Shown here: piece after piece, positions 4,126 through 22,797 of the stretch
Position numbering within the stretch: position 1 is the stretch's first letter
Layout: each line of letters starts with the position of its first letter
Virus record (IMG/VR): IMGVR_UViG_648276649_000003
Source of the DNA: a virus
Lineage: Duplodnaviria; Heunggongvirae; Uroviricota; Caudoviricetes
Reading direction: 5' to 3' (one strand)
Length of the DNA stretch: 24,165 nucleotides
Program-made: the position numbers and the translations under genes
Notes under the pieces: model-generated
The model's input: only the letters and a program-made list of their open reading frames with translations
Databases searched by the model: none
What the model was told of the DNA's origin: nothing

Positions 4126-4995
<870 letters not shown>

Positions 4996-13951: not shown

Positions 13952-14445
13952 TAAGCCCCCACGTAATTCCCTGACAGATACCACTCTTCACCCGATGCAG
14001 CGCGCTTGCTGCTTTTCCGTAAGCACCGCTCACGACGCGCCAGAAAATTGTTTCGTTCTGGCTGGGAGTGGCTTTCACGGAATGCCGCCATCCACACGGT
14101 TGCAGCACGACGGTATAAGCCCCTGGACTCCAGTTCTTCCGCCTGGCGGGTCAGGCACAAAATCACACGGGGATCGTTAGTGCCGACATAGAAATTGCGC
14201 ACAGGTCTGGTTTCACGAACTGGTTGTGGTTCCGGTTCCTGCGCTCTCTCAGTCAGGCGCGGGAAATGTCTGCGTGTATCTCCTTCACAACGGTGAGCCA
14301 CACGCCCACTCTGACGTAACTTGCTTGCTGACTGCAGAACGCGCTGCCGTGAGTAACCGGCAAAAGCATCCGCAATATCTCCGGAAGTACAGCCCGGATG
14401 GGCTTCAATGAATTTCTGAACGTCATTCAAAAGACTCATGCTCAC
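13951..14445 (-). CDS. Putative PerC-family-like regulator with an N-terminal extension
   Basis: C-terminal AEELESRGLYRRAATVWMAAF...RRERCL resembles the PerC/Pch signature as I recall it (AE.LE..GLYRRAA..W...RR..CL); identity is tentative. Confidence 0.45.
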   Translation of the reverse strand: MSMSLLNDVQKFIEAHPGCTSGDIADAFAGYSRQRVLQSASKLRQSGRVAHRCEGDTRRHFPRLTERAQEPEPQPVRETRPVRNFYVGTNDPRVILCLTRQAEELESRGLYRRAATVWMAAFRESHSQPERNNFLARRERCLRKSSKRAASGEEWYLSGNYVGA

Positions 14446-15383
14446 CCCCTGAATCCTGCCGGGATCTGGCTGTAGTCCACGTTGTCGTAACTGGCTTTGA
14501 AGTACGGGTCTTCGCGTTTTTCGGTGTACGTGCTGACGGACGGCGATAAGCGCAGGGAAAGCTCATCCCATTTTTCCCGCAGCTTCGACGGGCTGAGCAC
14601 GTTACGGCACCAGAACGGATCGCGACTGACGCGGCTGTACATCTCGCAGATTTGTTTATGAGTACGACCATCCTGCACACACATCAGGCGAATTTCGTTT
14701 GCCCAGGCTGTCCAGTTCGGTTCTTTGGGACGAACCACCTCGCCGTCACATTCGGCGGCCTGCTCGTACAGGGCGATGATTTTTTTCCAGAGCCACTGTG
14801 CGCAGGTCAAATCATCCTGCGTTCCCCACTGGCGCTTTTTAGGGCTGAATACAACCGCATCAGGATGGCGAGTTAAAAACTCCTGTTCAGCCGTCTGCGT
14901 GTCCGGTTGCGAAGCGTCCGGACGAGAAGTTTTTTTATCTGACGGATCATGTTTTGATTTTACTGACGGATCCCCGCCAGATTCTGACGGGTGAAAAACC
15001 GCTTTTTTGCCAGATTTCGACGCATCAAATTTTGACGGGTCAGATTTTGATGCGTCAGATTTTGACGGGTCAGAATCTGACAGTTGAGAAAATGCCGCTG
15101 CCTGAAGCTTCGCAACGTTAAGCTGATAAACATTCGACGCATTGCGGTTACCTTGGCGACGCGCCTTACGCGTTAACCAGCCTTCTGCTTCCAGCCGTGC
15201 GATAGCCGTTCTGACGGTACTCATCCCCGCGCCAATCTGACGGGCAATAGTTTCAATTGATGGCCAGCACACACCTTCGTCATTACTGAAATCAGCCAGG
15301 CGGGCCATAATTGCCACGCTGGATAATTTCATGCCTGACGCTGCGCAACCATCCCATACATAGCCGGTTAATTTAGTGCTCAT
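14442..15383 (-). CDS. Phage replication-initiation protein (N-terminal winged-helix DNA-binding domain, internal repeat linker)
   Basis: 313 aa; N-terminal HTH region; central low-complexity SKSD/ASKSD pentapeptide repeats encoded by 15-bp tandem DNA repeats; position next to the immunity region. Confidence 0.6.
   Translation of the reverse strand: MSTKLTGYVWDGCAASGMKLSSVAIMARLADFSNDEGVCWPSIETIARQIGAGMSTVRTAIARLEAEGWLTRKARRQGNRNASNVYQLNVAKLQAAAFSQLSDSDPSKSDASKSDPSKFDASKSGKKAVFHPSESGGDPSVKSKHDPSDKKTSRPDASQPDTQTAEQEFLTRHPDAVVFSPKKRQWGTQDDLTCAQWLWKKIIALYEQAAECDGEVVRPKEPNWTAWANEIRLMCVQDGRTHKQICEMYSRVSRDPFWCRNVLSPSKLREKWDELSLRLSPSVSTYTEKREDPYFKASYDNVDYSQIPAGFRG
14938..15085. repeat. Iteron-like tandem 15-bp repeats (CAGATTTTGACGGGT-like, at least 6 copies) embedded in the replication gene
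   Basis: Copies at 14978-14992, 15011-15025, 15026-15040, 15041-15055, 15056-15070 and 15071-15085, plus degenerate upstream copies; flanked by A/T runs (14930-14936, 15003-15008). Confidence 0.6.
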
Positions 15384-15392
15384 GACCGACCT

Positions 15393-15731
15393 CTATTTCC
15401 CTGAATTTACGACGAAACTGTTCGAGCGGGCTGAAGCACTCATGCTCATAGCCTTCACGGAGGTAGATAACCCGTTGTGTTTCCGGCTCCCAACGAATGA
15501 CTCTGACGGGCACTCCGTAGTGATCTTTGAACCAGCGGTTAACTTGTCGCAAAGGACTGTCTCCTTCTGCCGGTTAAAATCACCCACAGCCCACTCTGCA
15601 AAGCTGTGGGTTACAATTACCCTGCCACCTGGTACATTTACTGCATAGCAATACTCCACCTTCGCTTTTCCACCCGGTACAGGAAGCGCAATCAGTTGCG
15701 AGCGACGGTAGTGTGTTGTTAAACTATTCAT
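15393..15731 (-). CDS. Hypothetical phage protein (e14 YmfM-like by size and position)
   Basis: 112-aa ORF in the early-right operon between the immunity and replication genes; no recognisable motif. Confidence 0.45.
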
Positions 15732-16279
15732 GCGTTAGTTTCTCCACAGTCACGACACGCCACGGCGCCCGGAGCTGCACACTCGCGGGCGTCATTACTT
15801 TCTGAAATGCAAAAAATTTTGTAGACCAGTGCTGCATGCTCCTGCAGCTTCGAAATTGAGAGGTACAGCTCGTCGTTAATTGCTGTCTTCTCATGCGGTT
15901 CCACTACACCGTCTTCAATTGCTGAACGAATCTGTTTTGAATAACTGCCGATCTGTTCAATGACCTCCAGCAGGCGTTGGTTGATATCGGCGTTGTCCAC
16001 ATCCTCGACATCAGGAAGAGACACAAAGACGCCATTTGCAGACTGCGCCACAGCGTCAGCAATGAAGTGAGTTCCACCAGCACGTTGCAAAATCATTGCC
16101 CATCCCAGCGGGAAAATCTGATCGCCATCGGCACGAAGGCGGTTAAATAATGCGTTCTCTGTTACATCCAGCCAGTCAGCAGCTTCAGCGTAACCCCCCG
16201 GCAACGCTGCGATAGTTTTTCTGACAGCTTTCACGTACCACTCAGGCTGTTTTTCTACTTTCCAGTGATGCTTACCCAC
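15728..16279 (-). CDS. Hypothetical phage early protein (e14 YmfL-like by size and position)
   Basis: 183 aa, directly downstream of cro in the same operon; overlapping starts and stops. Confidence 0.5.
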
Positions 16280-16532
16280 GGTTCACCTCCTGTTCCTGTG
16301 GTTTAAACCCATTCTGGTTTTGGCTAGATTGAAAACGTGCCGGATAAAGAATCTGCATTTCGCTGACTTCACCCTTAAAAAAATTGGCTAAACGTTCTGC
16401 AAGCTCGATAGATGGAATCTGCTCCAGCCTCTCAATACGACTCAACGTCGCTGGATTGACTTGAACACCCGCAGCAACATGCTGCAAAGTGAAACCATGC
16501 GCCTTACGCACATTTCGTAATGGTGATTGCAT
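16272..16532 (-). CDS. Cro-like HTH (XRE-family) regulator
   Basis: 86 aa with HTH (GFTLQHVAAGVQVNPATLSRIE); divergent from cI; GGAGG Shine-Dalgarno 5 nt upstream of the ATG. Confidence 0.7.
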   Translation of the reverse strand: MQSPLRNVRKAHGFTLQHVAAGVQVNPATLSRIERLEQIPSIELAERLANFFKGEVSEMQILYPARFQSSQNQNGFKPQEQEVNRG

Positions 16533-16629
16533 ATAACCTCCAAATATTGCGCGTTATGCATGTTATTTCACGCAATTATTTTGCGCAAGTTGATTTGCTT
16601 ATCACGCAATAAAGAAATGTAATAAACGC
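16533..16629. promoter_or_regulatory. cro-cI divergent promoter/operator region with repeated TTGC...GCAA-type sites
   Basis: 97-bp intergenic region containing ATTGCGCG (16546-16553), TCACGCAA (16568-16575), palindromic TTGCGCAA (16581-16588) and a 15-bp site TTGCTTATCACGCAA (16595-16609). Confidence 0.6.
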
Positions 16630-17322
16630 ATGAACATAGGAAACCGAGTCAGACAACTTCGCCAAGCGAAGAACATGAAAATCGCCGATCTCGCTGAAGC
16701 AATAGGAGTAGATGCGGCGAACATCTCGCGCTTAGAAACGGGTAAGCAAAAACAATTTACCGAACAAACACTGAGTAATATTGCCAAGAGCTTAGGTGTT
16801 GATATTGCTGATCTCTTTACCTCTGCCCACAAAAGTAATACTGTATATAAAAACAGTAATAATGAGGATGTTGCGCAGGTGAAGGATGTGTTCCGTATTG
16901 AAATGCTGGATATCAGTGCCAGTGCGGGAAATGGCCTTATCCAGGGCGGTGATGTCATTGATGTGATTCATGCCATCGAATACAGAACTGATAATGCTGT
17001 ATCAATGTTCGGCGGACGACCAGCCAATCACATCAAAGTTATCAACGTTCGTGGGGACAGTATGTGTCCAACCATTGAGCCAGGAGATCTCATCTTCGTT
17101 GATGTCAGCATCAATCAGTTTGATGGTGATGGTATATATGTCTTTGGTTTTGATGACAAAATATACGTTAAAAGACTTCAAATGATTCCTGACAAACTGC
17201 TGGTGATTTCTGATAACCAGATTTACCGTGAATGGGGAATTACTAGCGAAAACGAACACCGATTCATGGTCTTTGGAAAGGTCTTAATCAGTCAGTCGCA
17301 AACCCTTAAGAGACATAATTAA
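16630..17322 (+). CDS. CI-like prophage repressor (HTH_XRE plus S24 LexA-like peptidase domain)
   Basis: 230 aa; N-terminal HTH (MKIADLAEAIGVDAANISRLETGKQ); C-terminal S24 signature (GDSMCPTIEPGDLIFVD ... YVKRL). Confidence 0.85.
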   Translation: MNIGNRVRQLRQAKNMKIADLAEAIGVDAANISRLETGKQKQFTEQTLSNIAKSLGVDIADLFTSAHKSNTVYKNSNNEDVAQVKDVFRIEMLDISASAGNGLIQGGDVIDVIHAIEYRTDNAVSMFGGRPANHIKVINVRGDSMCPTIEPGDLIFVDVSINQFDGDGIYVFGFDDKIYVKRLQMIPDKLLVISDNQIYREWGITSENEHRFMVFGKVLISQSQTLKRHN

Positions 17323-17340
17323 CCTCAATATCCCATCCAT

Positions 17341-17363
17341 CGGCCACCGAAAGGTGGCTTTTT
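17341..17363 (+). terminator. Rho-independent terminator after cI
   Basis: GGCCACC-GAAA-GGTGGC hairpin followed by TTTTT, 20 bp after the cI stop. Confidence 0.7.
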
Positions 17364-17376
17364 AATACCTATAAAT

Positions 17377-17413
17377 TTGCATACCTCGCAAATATTACTT
17401 GCATATCTCGCAA
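17377..17413. promoter_or_regulatory. Two direct 15-bp operator-like sites (TTGCATACCTCGCAA and TTGCATATCTCGCAA), an OL-like position
   Basis: 14 of 15 identical, centre-to-centre spacing 22 bp; same TTGC-N7-GCAA pattern as the site at 16595-16609 on the other side of cI. Confidence 0.55.
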
Positions 17414-17661
17414 TTTAATTTTATCTTTTGTTCCAGACCAACTACCGGATTACAACAAAATCTGGTTGCAACACGGTGCATGTGTCGTAAGCAGTCAGTA
17501 AATGTCAAAAACGAACAGGCAGGACGCCCACGAAGTAGCCGCCTGGGGCATATGAAGTCCAGGATGATTCGTTAGCAACAAAAAAGCGCCCTACAGGACG
17601 CTTAGCTCTTTAACAATCTGGTCCCCATCAACAAGTAACTGATAACTTGAGGAGATGTGAA

Positions 17662-17868
17662 ATGCACAAAACAGAACCCAAAATCGTCGCGCCTGGCTAC
17701 ACAGATGAGGAAATTTATGAGTGGATGACAAAGAAGCTGGCAGCTATAAACCAGCTTCGTGAAGTGCTGTCTTATCGACAGGAAACAATAGACTCTTTAA
17801 AAAAACTGGATCAGGAAATCACGGTTTTATCACAGGATGTTACTTTAGATATTGTGCAGACAAATTAG
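17662..17868 (+). CDS. Hypothetical small acidic protein (68 aa), first gene of the presumed early-left operon
   Basis: ORF track begins at a TTG (17647); the in-frame ATG at 17662 is preceded by GAGGAG; 3' end overlaps the convergent 144-aa gene. Confidence 0.45.
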   Translation: MHKTEPKIVAPGYTDEEIYEWMTKKLAAINQLREVLSYRQETIDSLKKLDQEITVLSQDVTLDIVQTN

Positions 17869-18274
17869 GATCCCATTCATTTTCGTCAAAATCATCAAAG
17901 TGATGAATTTGTGATCTCCAGTCTCGATAATCTAAAAATTTCTGGGCGGTTACGCTTATTTTATCAAGTGTGAGTTCATCCTGAATTGAAAGAAGAAGTT
18001 CATCAAATTTCATCTCATTAATCTGTTTTGGCATCCAGTGATGCTTCATCAGAATAAGGTGAACCAGAGCCTTTTTCCCATTCAACTGATTATAGGGAGT
18101 GCCGAATTTCTTCCGGTGCTCATGTAAGACAAGGTCCAAAAGAGTAAGTAATGTTGCCCTTGATTCAACTTTGCTTATTTCGACTGATGACACTACCCCA
18201 CTGATTTCAATGCCCCGATACTTTCCAACATTTTCACAGTGGGATTTGTACAGCGTATAGATATTACCGGACAT
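17840..18274 (-). CDS. Hypothetical protein (144 aa), AT-rich, antisense to the early-left operon
   Basis: Clean ORF with no large competing frame; unusual composition and orientation suggest acquired cargo; no recognisable motif. Confidence 0.5.
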   Translation of the reverse strand: MSGNIYTLYKSHCENVGKYRGIEISGVVSSVEISKVESRATLLTLLDLVLHEHRKKFGTPYNQLNGKKALVHLILMKHHWMPKQINEMKFDELLLSIQDELTLDKISVTAQKFLDYRDWRSQIHHFDDFDENEWDPNLSAQYLK

Positions 18275-21317: not shown

Positions 21318-21667
21318 TGGAGCCATACAGCCTCACACTCGATGAGGCCTGTCATTTTCTCAAGATATCCAGACCGACTGCCATTAACTGGATACGCACA
21401 GGGCGTCTTCAGGCAACACGCAAAGATCCCACTAAGAATAAATCTCCTTACCTCACAACACGACAAGCCTGCATTGCGGCTCTTCAGTCTCCGCTGCATA
21501 CTGTCCAGGTGAGCGCGGGTGATGGCATAACAGAGGAAAGAAAATGTCACTCTTCCGCAGAGGTGAAATATGGTACGCCAGTTTCACATTGCCGAACGGT
21601 AAAAGATTTAAACAGTCTCTTGGAACAAAGGACAAAAGGCAGGCGACAGAACTCCATGACAAGCTAA
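21317..21667 (+). CDS. xis: Excisionase (Xis, AlpA/e14 XisE-like HTH); 3' end uncertain
   Basis: [36 protein letters not shown] is an excisionase-type winged helix; the frame stays open to 21667 and so overlaps the int start by about 120 nt. Confidence 0.6.
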
Positions 21668-22707
21668 AGGCTGAAGCATGGCGGGTCAGCAAACTTGGTG
21701 AAATACCTGATATAACGTTCGAGGAAGCGTGTGTCAGGTGGCTTGAAGAGAAAGCACATAAAAAATCACTGGACGATGACAAAAGCCGGATCGGATTCTG
21801 GCTTCAACATTTCGCAGGAATGCAACTAAGAGACATTACTGAATCAAAAATTTATTCAGCAATGCATAAAATGACGAACCGGCGTCATGAGGAAAACTGG
21901 AAACTCAGGGCAGAAGCATGCAGAAAAAAAGGGAAACCTGTTCCAGAATACACGCCAAAACCAGCGTCCGTTGCAACGAAGGCTACGCATCTTTCATTTA
22001 TAAAGGCCCTACTAAGAGCCGCAGAGCGTGAATGGAAAATGCTGGATAAGGCACCAATTATTAAAGTGCCCCAACCAAAGAATAAACGGATCCGCTGGCT
22101 GGAGCCCCATGAAGCACAAAGGCTGATTGATGAATGTCCGGAGCCATTAAAGTCTGTTGTTGAATTTGCACTGGCAACAGGCCTAAGACGCTCGAACATC
22201 ATCAACCTTGAATGGCAACAAATAGATATGCAGCGCCGGGTGGCATGGATAAACCCGGAAGAGAGTAAATCAAACCGCGCAATTGGCGTTGCGCTGAATG
22301 ATACTGCATGTCGCGTATTGAAAAAACAAATCGGGAATCATCACCGTTGGGTATTTGTGTACAAGGAAAGCTGTACCAAACCAGACGGAACGAAAGCGCC
22401 AACAGTCAGGAAGATGCGGTATGACGCAAACACAGCCTGGAAAGCGGCGCTGAGACGGGCTGGTATTGATGATTTCAGATTTCACGACTTGAGACACACC
22501 TGGGCAAGTTGGCTGGTTCAAGCCGGAGTCCCGTTGTCAGTGTTACAGGAAATGGGAGGCTGGGAGTCTATCGAAATGGTTCGTCGATATGCTCACCTTG
22601 CACCTAATCACCTTACCGAACACGCACGGCAAATAGACTCGATCCTGAACCCATCGGTCCCAAATTTGTCCCAGTCAAAAAATAAGGAAGGTACTAATGA
22701 TGTGTAA
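21544..22707 (+). CDS. int: Tyrosine-recombinase phage integrase (lambda/e14 IntE-like)
   Basis: 387 aa; N-terminus [21 protein letters not shown]; catalytic-domain motifs (...[11 protein letters not shown]...VRRYAHL); stop is 15 bp from the tRNA 3' end. Confidence 0.9.
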
Positions 22708-22721
22708 CTTATTGATTTAAA

Positions 22722-22797
22722 TGGTGCCGATAATAGGAGTCGAACCTACGACCTTCGCATTACGAATGCGCTGCTCTACCAACTGAGCTATATCGGC
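22722..22797 (-). tRNA. thrW: tRNA-Thr (anticodon CGU)
   Basis: Reverse complement reads GCCGATATAGCTCAGTTGGTAGAGCAGCGCATTCGTAATGCGAAGGTCGTAGGTTCGACTCCTATTATCGGCACCA: cloverleaf with anticodon loop TTCGTAA and encoded CCA. Confidence 0.9.

Follow-up and report, generated by a model that had tools for sequence, protein, structure and literature searches.

Putative CI operators on both sides of cI in an SfII-type lambdoid prophage, in a layout resembling that of lambda

The window analysed here is a stretch of 24,165 nucleotides from the Caudoviricetes record IMGVR_UViG_648276649_000003, and it holds a lambdoid prophage of the SfII/SfV type integrated beside a tRNA gene at positions 22725 to 22797. 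Its repressor gene, cI (16630 to 17322, plus strand; 230 amino acids [aa]), and its cro-like gene (16272 to 16532, minus strand; 86 aa) are divergent and separated by a spacer of 97 bp. The same genes are labelled CI and Cro in phage SfII. Cro carries an HTH_3 domain (Pfam, 5e-10), and CI combines HTH_3 (residues 7 to 62; 1e-11) with Peptidase_S24 (residues 104 to 218; 6e-19). The translation of CI contains an Ala-Gly site (SASAGNG) and the motifs GDSM and VKRL, which by analogy only would be the catalytic residues of LexA-like self-cleavage. The region also holds a CII-like gene (15728 to 16279, minus strand; Pfam CP76). Downstream, cI is followed by an intrinsic terminator (17342 to 17363, plus strand) with a 7-pair stem (17342 to 17359), a GAAA loop and a TTTTT tract, which is annotated as such in SfII and is invariant across 80 related loci. 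The roughly 300 bp 3' of this terminator contain no convincing open reading frame (ORF), after which the early-left genes run rightward. The subject of this study is a 15-bp motif, TTGC-N7-GCAA, that occurs in the noncoding DNA on both sides of cI and that an earlier note on the sequence had read as a lambda-like pair of right and left operators (OR and OL). We consider it very likely that these sites are CI operators at both early promoters, arranged in a lambda-type layout.

All of the sequences quoted in the earlier note are present where it had placed them. Exact matches to TTGC-N7-GCAA begin at 16595, 17377 and 17399, so that the motif does lie on both sides of cI. The OR site by cI, TTGCTTATCACGCAA, occupies 16595 to 16609. 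The two downstream sites, TTGCATACCTCGCAA (OL1-like, 17377 to 17391) and TTGCATATCTCGCAA (OL2-like, 17399 to 17413), begin 18 bp past the terminator stem and, as had been described, are spaced 22 bp centre to centre after the cI terminator and ahead of the early-left genes. The two sets of sites are separated by 0.78 to 0.80 kb. Three exact matches in 24,165 bp compare with 0.9 expected, and 8 of 100 shuffled sequences gave at least three; the motif count by itself is therefore weak evidence. The placement and the extended similarity of the matches are not due to chance: all three lie within the two noncoding stretches that flank cI, and they have 13 of 15 positions in common (TTGCWTAYCWCGCAA). 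When one mismatch was allowed, a fourth full site emerged that had been overlooked before, namely, the OR site by cro, TTGCGCGTTATGCAT (16547 to 16561), with a single arm mismatch. The consensus proposed earlier is better written TTGC-N6-CGCA(A/T). A weight matrix trained only on the sites of relatives was scanned over about 24,150 positions of the window, and it placed the sites at 16595, 17399, 16547 and 17377, in that order, at ranks 1 to 4 with scores of 19.4 to 14.8. The best score outside the cro-cI region was 8.1.

Neither region holds three adjacent sites; the downstream set consists of two sites (21 to 24 bp apart across the relatives described below) and OR also consists of two. The segments 16561 to 16575, 16574 to 16588 and 16581 to 16595, as well as an inside-out palindrome, CGCAATTATTTTGCG (16571 to 16585), were tried as a middle, OR2-like site and were rejected, none scoring above 2 bits with the operator matrix. 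Readings of the motif as a sigma-54 promoter or a PurR-like site were rejected by eye on spacing. The fifth rank of the matrix (score, 10.6) fell on ATGCGCCTTACGCAC (16497 to 16511), a candidate operator inside codons 8 to 12 of cro. The equivalent position in distant homologues reads TTGCGATTTTCGCAA, ATGCGATTTGCGCAA, ATGCGCAACGCGCAA and ATGCGACTTACGCAA, and the codon choices of those cro genes (TTG, CGx, TCG and CAA/CAT) recreate the operator arms. Lying some 50 bp beyond the start of the predicted rightward promoter (PR), this site may represent an additional operator, but the assignment is tentative because protein-coding constraint could contribute to the likeness.

A close relative of CI is encoded by 446 stretches in IMG/VR, and a number of named phages share the immunity of the window. 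SfII is 99% identical to the window over 16200 to 17573 and 98.5% identical over 14000 to 17573, with the same cI, cro and terminator. Coliphage mEp460, PhiR63_1, phiSTEC1575-Stx2k, Stx2a_1447/WGPS2 and 1720a-02 match the window at about 90% identity from the CII-like gene up to 17482. All four sites occur at the same positions in these six phages. Of the 121 alignment columns in the cro-cI spacer, 11 are variable; the central 7 bp of the full sites account for six of these and the arms for none, and at the site 16547 to 16561 variation is confined to the central 7 bp. The TTGC and CGCAA arms of the downstream sites are likewise invariant around the centres ATACCTC, ATATATC, ATATCTC, GCATCTC and ATAATGC. 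Insertions and deletions near the downstream sites are found only between the two, giving spacings of 22, 23 and 24 bp and, at one locus, 21 bp. Because the arms are fixed, the centres vary and the length changes fall only between sites, the unit of the operator is the 15-mer itself. At one further locus (L040; IMGVR_UViG_2529293213_000044), exactly one 22-bp operator unit has been deleted and a single downstream site is left. Together with the 21-, 23- and 24-bp spacings, this deletion is evidence that the downstream direct repeat recombines or slips.

Phages that share the backbone of the window but differ in immunity were also compared. SfV, SfIV and PhiR29_1 carry unrelated cI and cro genes, and TTGC-N7-GCAA was not found in the corresponding regions of these three phages. 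They have instead palindromes of the type ATGTACC-N7-ATACAT in the cro-cI spacer and two more directly after the cI terminator, where the downstream palindromes overlap a near-consensus promoter (TTGACA, 16 to 17 bp, CATAAT) directed toward the early-left genes. A third cI is present in 569R4, which has sites of the type ACTAAG-N4-CTTAGT at both locations. On one backbone, three immunity types thus come with three different motifs, each of them present on both sides of cI. BLAST alignments of SfIV, 569R4 and PhiR29_1 with the window are 96 to 99% identical up to 16304 to 16307, within the 3' end of cro, and resume at 17502 to 17507, with nothing alignable between. The segment from 16308 to 17501 is therefore the immunity cassette in which the window differs from its heteroimmune relatives. 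Within it lie OR, cI, the terminator and the two downstream sites, along with most of cro and ~70 nt from the start of the leader that follows. This covariation of motif and immunity type, with the downstream pair enclosed in the cassette, is in our view the strongest argument that the pair is functionally tied to the repressor.

The sites persist well beyond the close relatives. More distant CI homologues, with 92 to 66% identity and sampled at one genome per species, were found in Citrobacter (three species), Pseudescherichia, Klebsiella spallanzanii, Trabulsiella and Buttiauxella. At each of the 10 loci compared, TTGC-N7-GCAT occurs at -83 or -84 and TTGC-N7-GCAA at -35 or -36 from the cI ATG. 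A full or near-full first downstream site lies at +54 to +58 past the cI stop in 8 of the 10 loci, and a second lies at +77 to +82, also in 8 of 10. Five of the seven distant homologues have the downstream pair, 23 to 24 bp apart, after the cI terminator; the first site of the pair is degenerate in C. amalonaticus. Over the ten loci, the pattern matched 37 times in 2,300 bp of regulatory windows versus 9 times in 38,697 bp elsewhere (nominal Poisson P of ~1e-54, a value that common descent makes too extreme). The segment of CI predicted to be its recognition helix, ANISRLETGKQK, hardly changes among the distant homologues, which fits the constancy of the operator arms.

Promoters were scored with a sigma-70 weight matrix built on textbook hexamer frequencies, over 241,300 candidates. 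The best plus-strand candidate in 17323 to 17670 is a predicted PL-like (early-left) promoter, directed rightward, at 17399 to 17434, with a -35 element TTGCAT (17399 to 17404), a 17-bp spacer, a -10 element TATCTT (17422 to 17427) and a predicted start at about 17434. Its score, 7.75, is among the top 45 of all candidates, and it has no plus-strand rival of similar score in the stretch from cI to the early-left genes. The -35 element coincides with the left arm of the second site of the downstream pair. The -10 element is invariant in 80 close relatives, and the geometry TTGCxx-17-TATCTT, TATCAT or TATGGT is seen again in the homologues from Citrobacter, Trabulsiella and Buttiauxella. On the minus strand, PR is predicted at 16560 to 16588, with a -35 element TTGCGC (16588 to 16583), a 17-bp spacer and a -10 element TAACAT (16565 to 16560; TAATAT in relatives); its score of 8.04 is among the top 40. 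The site 16547 to 16561 covers the edge of the predicted PR -10 element and the predicted start, near 16553. These assignments bear on two related half-sites that the earlier note had listed in the cro-cI region. Both are at the positions given for them, but TCACGCAA (16568 to 16575) is not conserved in distant relatives, and TTGCGCAA (16581 to 16588), although invariant, belongs to an invariant segment, TTGCGCAAGT, that holds the predicted PR -35 element, and it is probably better explained as that element.

A tentative promoter for cI (PRM) on the plus strand, TTGCTT-17-TGTAAT, has its -35 element in the left arm of the site 16595 to 16609 and would start at about 16630, the cI ATG. The lambda PRM also starts at the cI ATG. 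Because its -10 element is without the key A at position 2, this candidate (score, 5.67) is weak and is not relied on here. Eight nucleotides upstream of the cI ATG, at 16617 to 16622, the sequence ATGTAA places a start codon directly before a stop codon. The invariant string (A/C)ATGTAAT is kept in seven of eight distant homologues, with CCTGTAAT in Buttiauxella, and the element may be -10-like or a start-stop mini-ORF.

The earlier suggestion that CI controls a PL-like promoter as well as PR is supported by four independent comparative results. The persistence of the sites, the matching motifs of the heteroimmune phages, the limits of the cassette and the overlap with the predicted PL -35 element all fit a CI operator set on each side of cI, the downstream pair controlling a PL-like promoter. 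We propose that CI dimers, and probably Cro also, recognise the quasi-palindrome TTGC-N6-CGCA(A/T), the outer 4 to 5 bp of each half being the contacted arms and the centre not being read base by base. At OR, one CI dimer would block PR and the other full site would cover the -35 element of the tentative cI promoter. The 21- to 24-bp spacing of the downstream pair, about two helical turns, would permit cooperative binding of CI, and the promoter-proximal dimer would occlude the -35 element of PL, which is predicted to read rightward into a small ORF, the yfdPQRST-like genes, xis and int. CI bound in this way would silence the two early operons of a lysogen, and RecA-stimulated self-cleavage of CI would release both. 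Looping between OL and OR over 0.78 to 0.80 kb, which the earlier note had raised, is plausible. Cro probably uses the same sites as CI, since both proteins belong to HTH_3 and their helices match by eye (AANISRLETGKQ versus PATLSRIERLEQ).

Several observations weigh against this model or against its likeness to lambda. A strict built-in sigma-70 scan returned no promoter in 16200 to 17900, and the PL candidate matches the consensus at only 7 of 12 positions. A competing minus-strand candidate, TTGGTC-18-TAAATT from 17441, scores 7.63, nearly as high as PL; its -35 element is altered in mEp460, and by eye it is absent in Buttiauxella and unconserved in the distant relatives. The Pseudescherichia and Klebsiella loci do not have the downstream pair, with one site in Klebsiella and none in Pseudescherichia, although both look like truncated prophages that end right after cI. 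OR has two full sites 48 bp apart with no middle site above 2 bits, a layout unlike that of lambda, where three sites adjoin one another; three evenly spaced sites are not present in OR. The strongest OR site overlaps the -35 element of the tentative cI promoter, which would therefore imply autorepression rather than lambda-style activation. Finally, BLASTP of the N-terminal domain of CI against Cro gave no alignment, and the case for shared recognition rests on the by-eye comparison of helices.

The empty promoter scan and the modest consensus match of PL would both fit a different role for the downstream sites, in which they bind CI without controlling a promoter and serve as auxiliary sites, either aiding repression at OR by looping or forming a roadblock past the cI terminator, while the early-left genes are driven from elsewhere. 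The 230-nt leader, with a hairpin at 17584 to 17603, that precedes the first ORF could be taken the same way. We nevertheless consider an auxiliary role unlikely. Across genera, the -10 element is retained and stays 17 bp from the second site; in the 80 loci this element is fixed and the positions just upstream vary freely; in SfV, the corresponding location is occupied by a near-consensus promoter of the same orientation; and the stretch between cI and the early-left genes offers no comparable plus-strand promoter to take over the task.

It is less probable still that a protein other than CI is the main one to recognise the motif, be it Cro alone, the CII-like protein or a host factor. The motif switches together with cI and cro, and in SfIV, 569R4 and PhiR29_1 it does so beside a CII-like gene that stays 96 to 99% identical; because the motif changes on a constant CII-like gene and backbone, CII and host factors are excluded as the determinant of specificity. 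Cro, too, is an HTH_3 protein and is encoded in this cassette, but its sharing of the sites is expected if CI binds them, so that it is not a true rival. We assign the lowest probability of all, a very small one, to the proposal that the motif is a by-product of promoter-like sequence, with TTGC as a fragment of a -35 element in AT-rich spacers, rather than a site for protein binding. Three of the four sites do overlap a predicted promoter element, and the number of 8-base matches does not by itself reach significance. Yet the right arm, CGCAA, has no promoter role and is as invariant as the left arm, the site 17377 to 17391 overlaps no predicted hexamer, each site is dyad symmetric, and different palindromes occupy the same places in the heteroimmune relatives. 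CI operators at both early promoters remain the explanation that we favour.

Outside the arms, the downstream operator region and the spacer between the cro Shine-Dalgarno sequence and ATG vary far more than synonymous sites do among prophages that are otherwise identical. Population alignments of 80, 63 and 80 sequences were examined, with the SfII, SfV and mEp460 groups included; the SfII-group set consists of 80 IMG/VR loci whose CI is essentially identical to that of the window. Among these 80 loci, the 49 bp from 17365 to 17413 fall into 46 haplotypes, compared with 19 for the whole 693-bp cI gene, and the next 32 bp of the leader fall into 5. Diversity per site amounts to 0.0042 in cro and 0.0022 in cI (0.0045 for third codon positions), whereas OL1 has 0.10, OL2 has 0.04 and the spacer between them has 0.16; single downstream positions reach 0.3 to 0.44, several of them with three alleles. 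Natural variants of the centre include ATACCTC, ATATCTC, ATATCAC and ATATTTC. The centre of OL1 has a diversity of 0.29 to 0.41 compared with no more than 0.07 in the arms; the arms overall do not exceed 0.07 except for the last base of OL2, at 0.10. A second hot spot is formed by the 3 nt between the Shine-Dalgarno sequence of cro and its ATG (16534 to 16536), with diversities of 0.34 to 0.50. On one identical background of 1,192 bp, 15 loci carry 9 operator haplotypes and 4 haplotypes of this ribosome-binding-site (RBS) spacer. In the population alignments, the arms, the PL -10 element and the leader are invariant, and the centres and spacers vary. The SfV and mEp460 groups show the same pattern of invariant arms and hot centres and spacers with a smaller contrast, because their background diversity is higher. 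It is possible, though we regard it as somewhat doubtful, that the switch has tuning positions built into it whose turnover greatly exceeds that of neutral sites. If so, this would point to recurrent diversifying selection on the induction set point of the lysis-lysogeny switch or to a locally raised mutation rate, which in the latter case would act in DNA permanently covered by repressor.

Beyond the cassette, the predicted PL transcript would enter a leader module (17502 to 17620) that is 97 to 99% identical in phages of all three immunity types. The module starts at about 17502 to 17507 with ACGAACAGGCAGGACGCCCACGAAGTAGCC and ends with the hairpin at 17584 to 17603, a predicted terminator on the minus strand as well, and after it a boxA-like element, GCTCTTTAACAA (17605 to 17616, plus strand). 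We take this element to be a putative boxA by its likeness to the rrn/nut consensus; it is an exact rrn-type match and the only exact one in the window. N-independent, boxA-based read-through in the PL leader is conceivable because no N homologue has been reported for SfII, SfV or SfIV (PMC3851460). Rfam searches of the window at the gathering threshold returned the tRNA only, and a permissive search of 17300 to 17900 gave matches at chance level, so the leader fits no known RNA family. An unusually structured, put-like leader RNA was also considered and rejected, since the fold of 17434 to 17665 had a z score of -0.03 relative to shuffled sequences. A small RNA (sRNA) of E. coli K1 RS218, sRNA-17, has been mapped by rapid amplification of cDNA ends (RACE) in an mEp460-like prophage (PMC7719688). 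In mEp460 (about 4516 to 4708, minus strand) and other mEp460-group loci (L004 to L007), sRNA-17 is encoded antisense to the PL operon, in the interval from the downstream operators to yfdP; it is absent from the window, where a different module sits. Its 5' end was rejected as a marker for PL, being ~500 bp downstream of the operators and on the opposite strand.

The early-left genes begin with the 68-aa ORF (17662 to 17868, plus strand) and continue with a YfdP-like ORF without a Pfam match, DUF2303/YfdQ, a YfbR-like HD protein, DUF551, a YfdT-like ORF also without a Pfam match, and, next to the tRNA gene, an HTH_17 excisionase gene (xis) and a tyrosine integrase gene (int, 21544 to 22707). 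Within this operon, an ORF of 144 aa without a Pfam match (17840 to 18274) runs on the opposite strand, extends into the 3' end of the 68-aa ORF and apparently ends at the terminator at 17603 to 17584; it looks like a moron inserted against the direction of PL. At the left end of the window, 255 to 2870 are occupied by an IS66-family element with TnpB_IS66 and DDE_Tnp_IS66 ORFs. Its neighbours may be phage structural genes, in which case the element has possibly disrupted the prophage.

Of the annotated records for SfII, SfV and mEp460, only that of SfV marks an operator, as a "putative operator region" in the cro-cI spacer, and a downstream set is marked in none of the three. An exact-sequence search of the searchable literature with four site variants returned no paper, and no operator description for the SfII/mEp460 immunity group was found there. 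The SfIV paper mentions operators generically only (PMC3851460). A survey of CI clades in Shiga toxin (Stx) phages gives no operator sequences for any clade, though it speculates that differences between repressors match distinct target sequences (PMC8951638). A search of solved structures with CI returned distant helix-turn-helix (HTH) and UmuD matches only, the N-terminal domain being distantly 434-like (1per/1sq8; E of about 1e-3), so that among solved structures this CI has no characterised close homologue. The immunity type itself is common, as it is carried by the serotype-converting phage SfII, coliphage mEp460 and several Stx2-converting phages. In Stx2 phages the affinity of repressor for operator sets the rate of spontaneous induction and thereby the output of toxin. 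The operator consensus, the site map, the predicted PL and PR and the limits of the cassette should make binding studies, immunity typing from sequence and the design of reporter constructs easier. Conceptually, nothing is added to the lambda paradigm; the hypervariable operator centres and the cro RBS spacer are the only part that could lead somewhere new.

The likeness to lambda is one of plan. Both have divergent cI and cro genes, dyad-symmetric operators on either side of cI, a PL (predicted in the window) downstream of cI and in the same direction, a self-cleaving CI composed of HTH and S24 domains, and an exchangeable immunity cassette. They differ in that the operator here is 15 bp (TTGC-N6-CGCAA) rather than 17 bp, OL has two sites rather than three, and the full sites of OR number two, with a spacing of 48 bp, in place of three at 23 to 24 bp. 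The operator sets are 0.8 kb apart here versus ~2.3 kb in lambda because no rexAB lies between cI and OL in the window. Activation of the cI promoter from an OR2-like site, as in lambda, is not evident. Another parallel is offered by phage 434 (ACAA-N6-TTGT), which likewise has short conserved outer arms around a centre of variable effect but differs in its 14-bp length, its arms and its three sites per operator region. Koudelka, Harrison and Ptashne reportedly showed in 1987 that the centre of the 434 operator is uncontacted and modulates affinity through the shape of the DNA.

The closest worked-out analogue is phage 933W. It belongs, like the window, to the group of E. coli lambdoid phages and has 15-bp operators with conserved outer positions, three of them in OR and two in OL. 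It differs in its repressor and site sequence and in having closely spaced OR sites, and binding has been measured in 933W, whereas the sites in the window are predicted from sequence. The 933W operator is rotationally symmetric about a central base pair, with five natural sites distributed over OR and OL, and its outer positions are conserved while its inner positions fine-tune affinity (PMC3317979). Since 933W has five sites in all, the three-sites-per-operator arrangement of lambda does not appear to be universal in the family.

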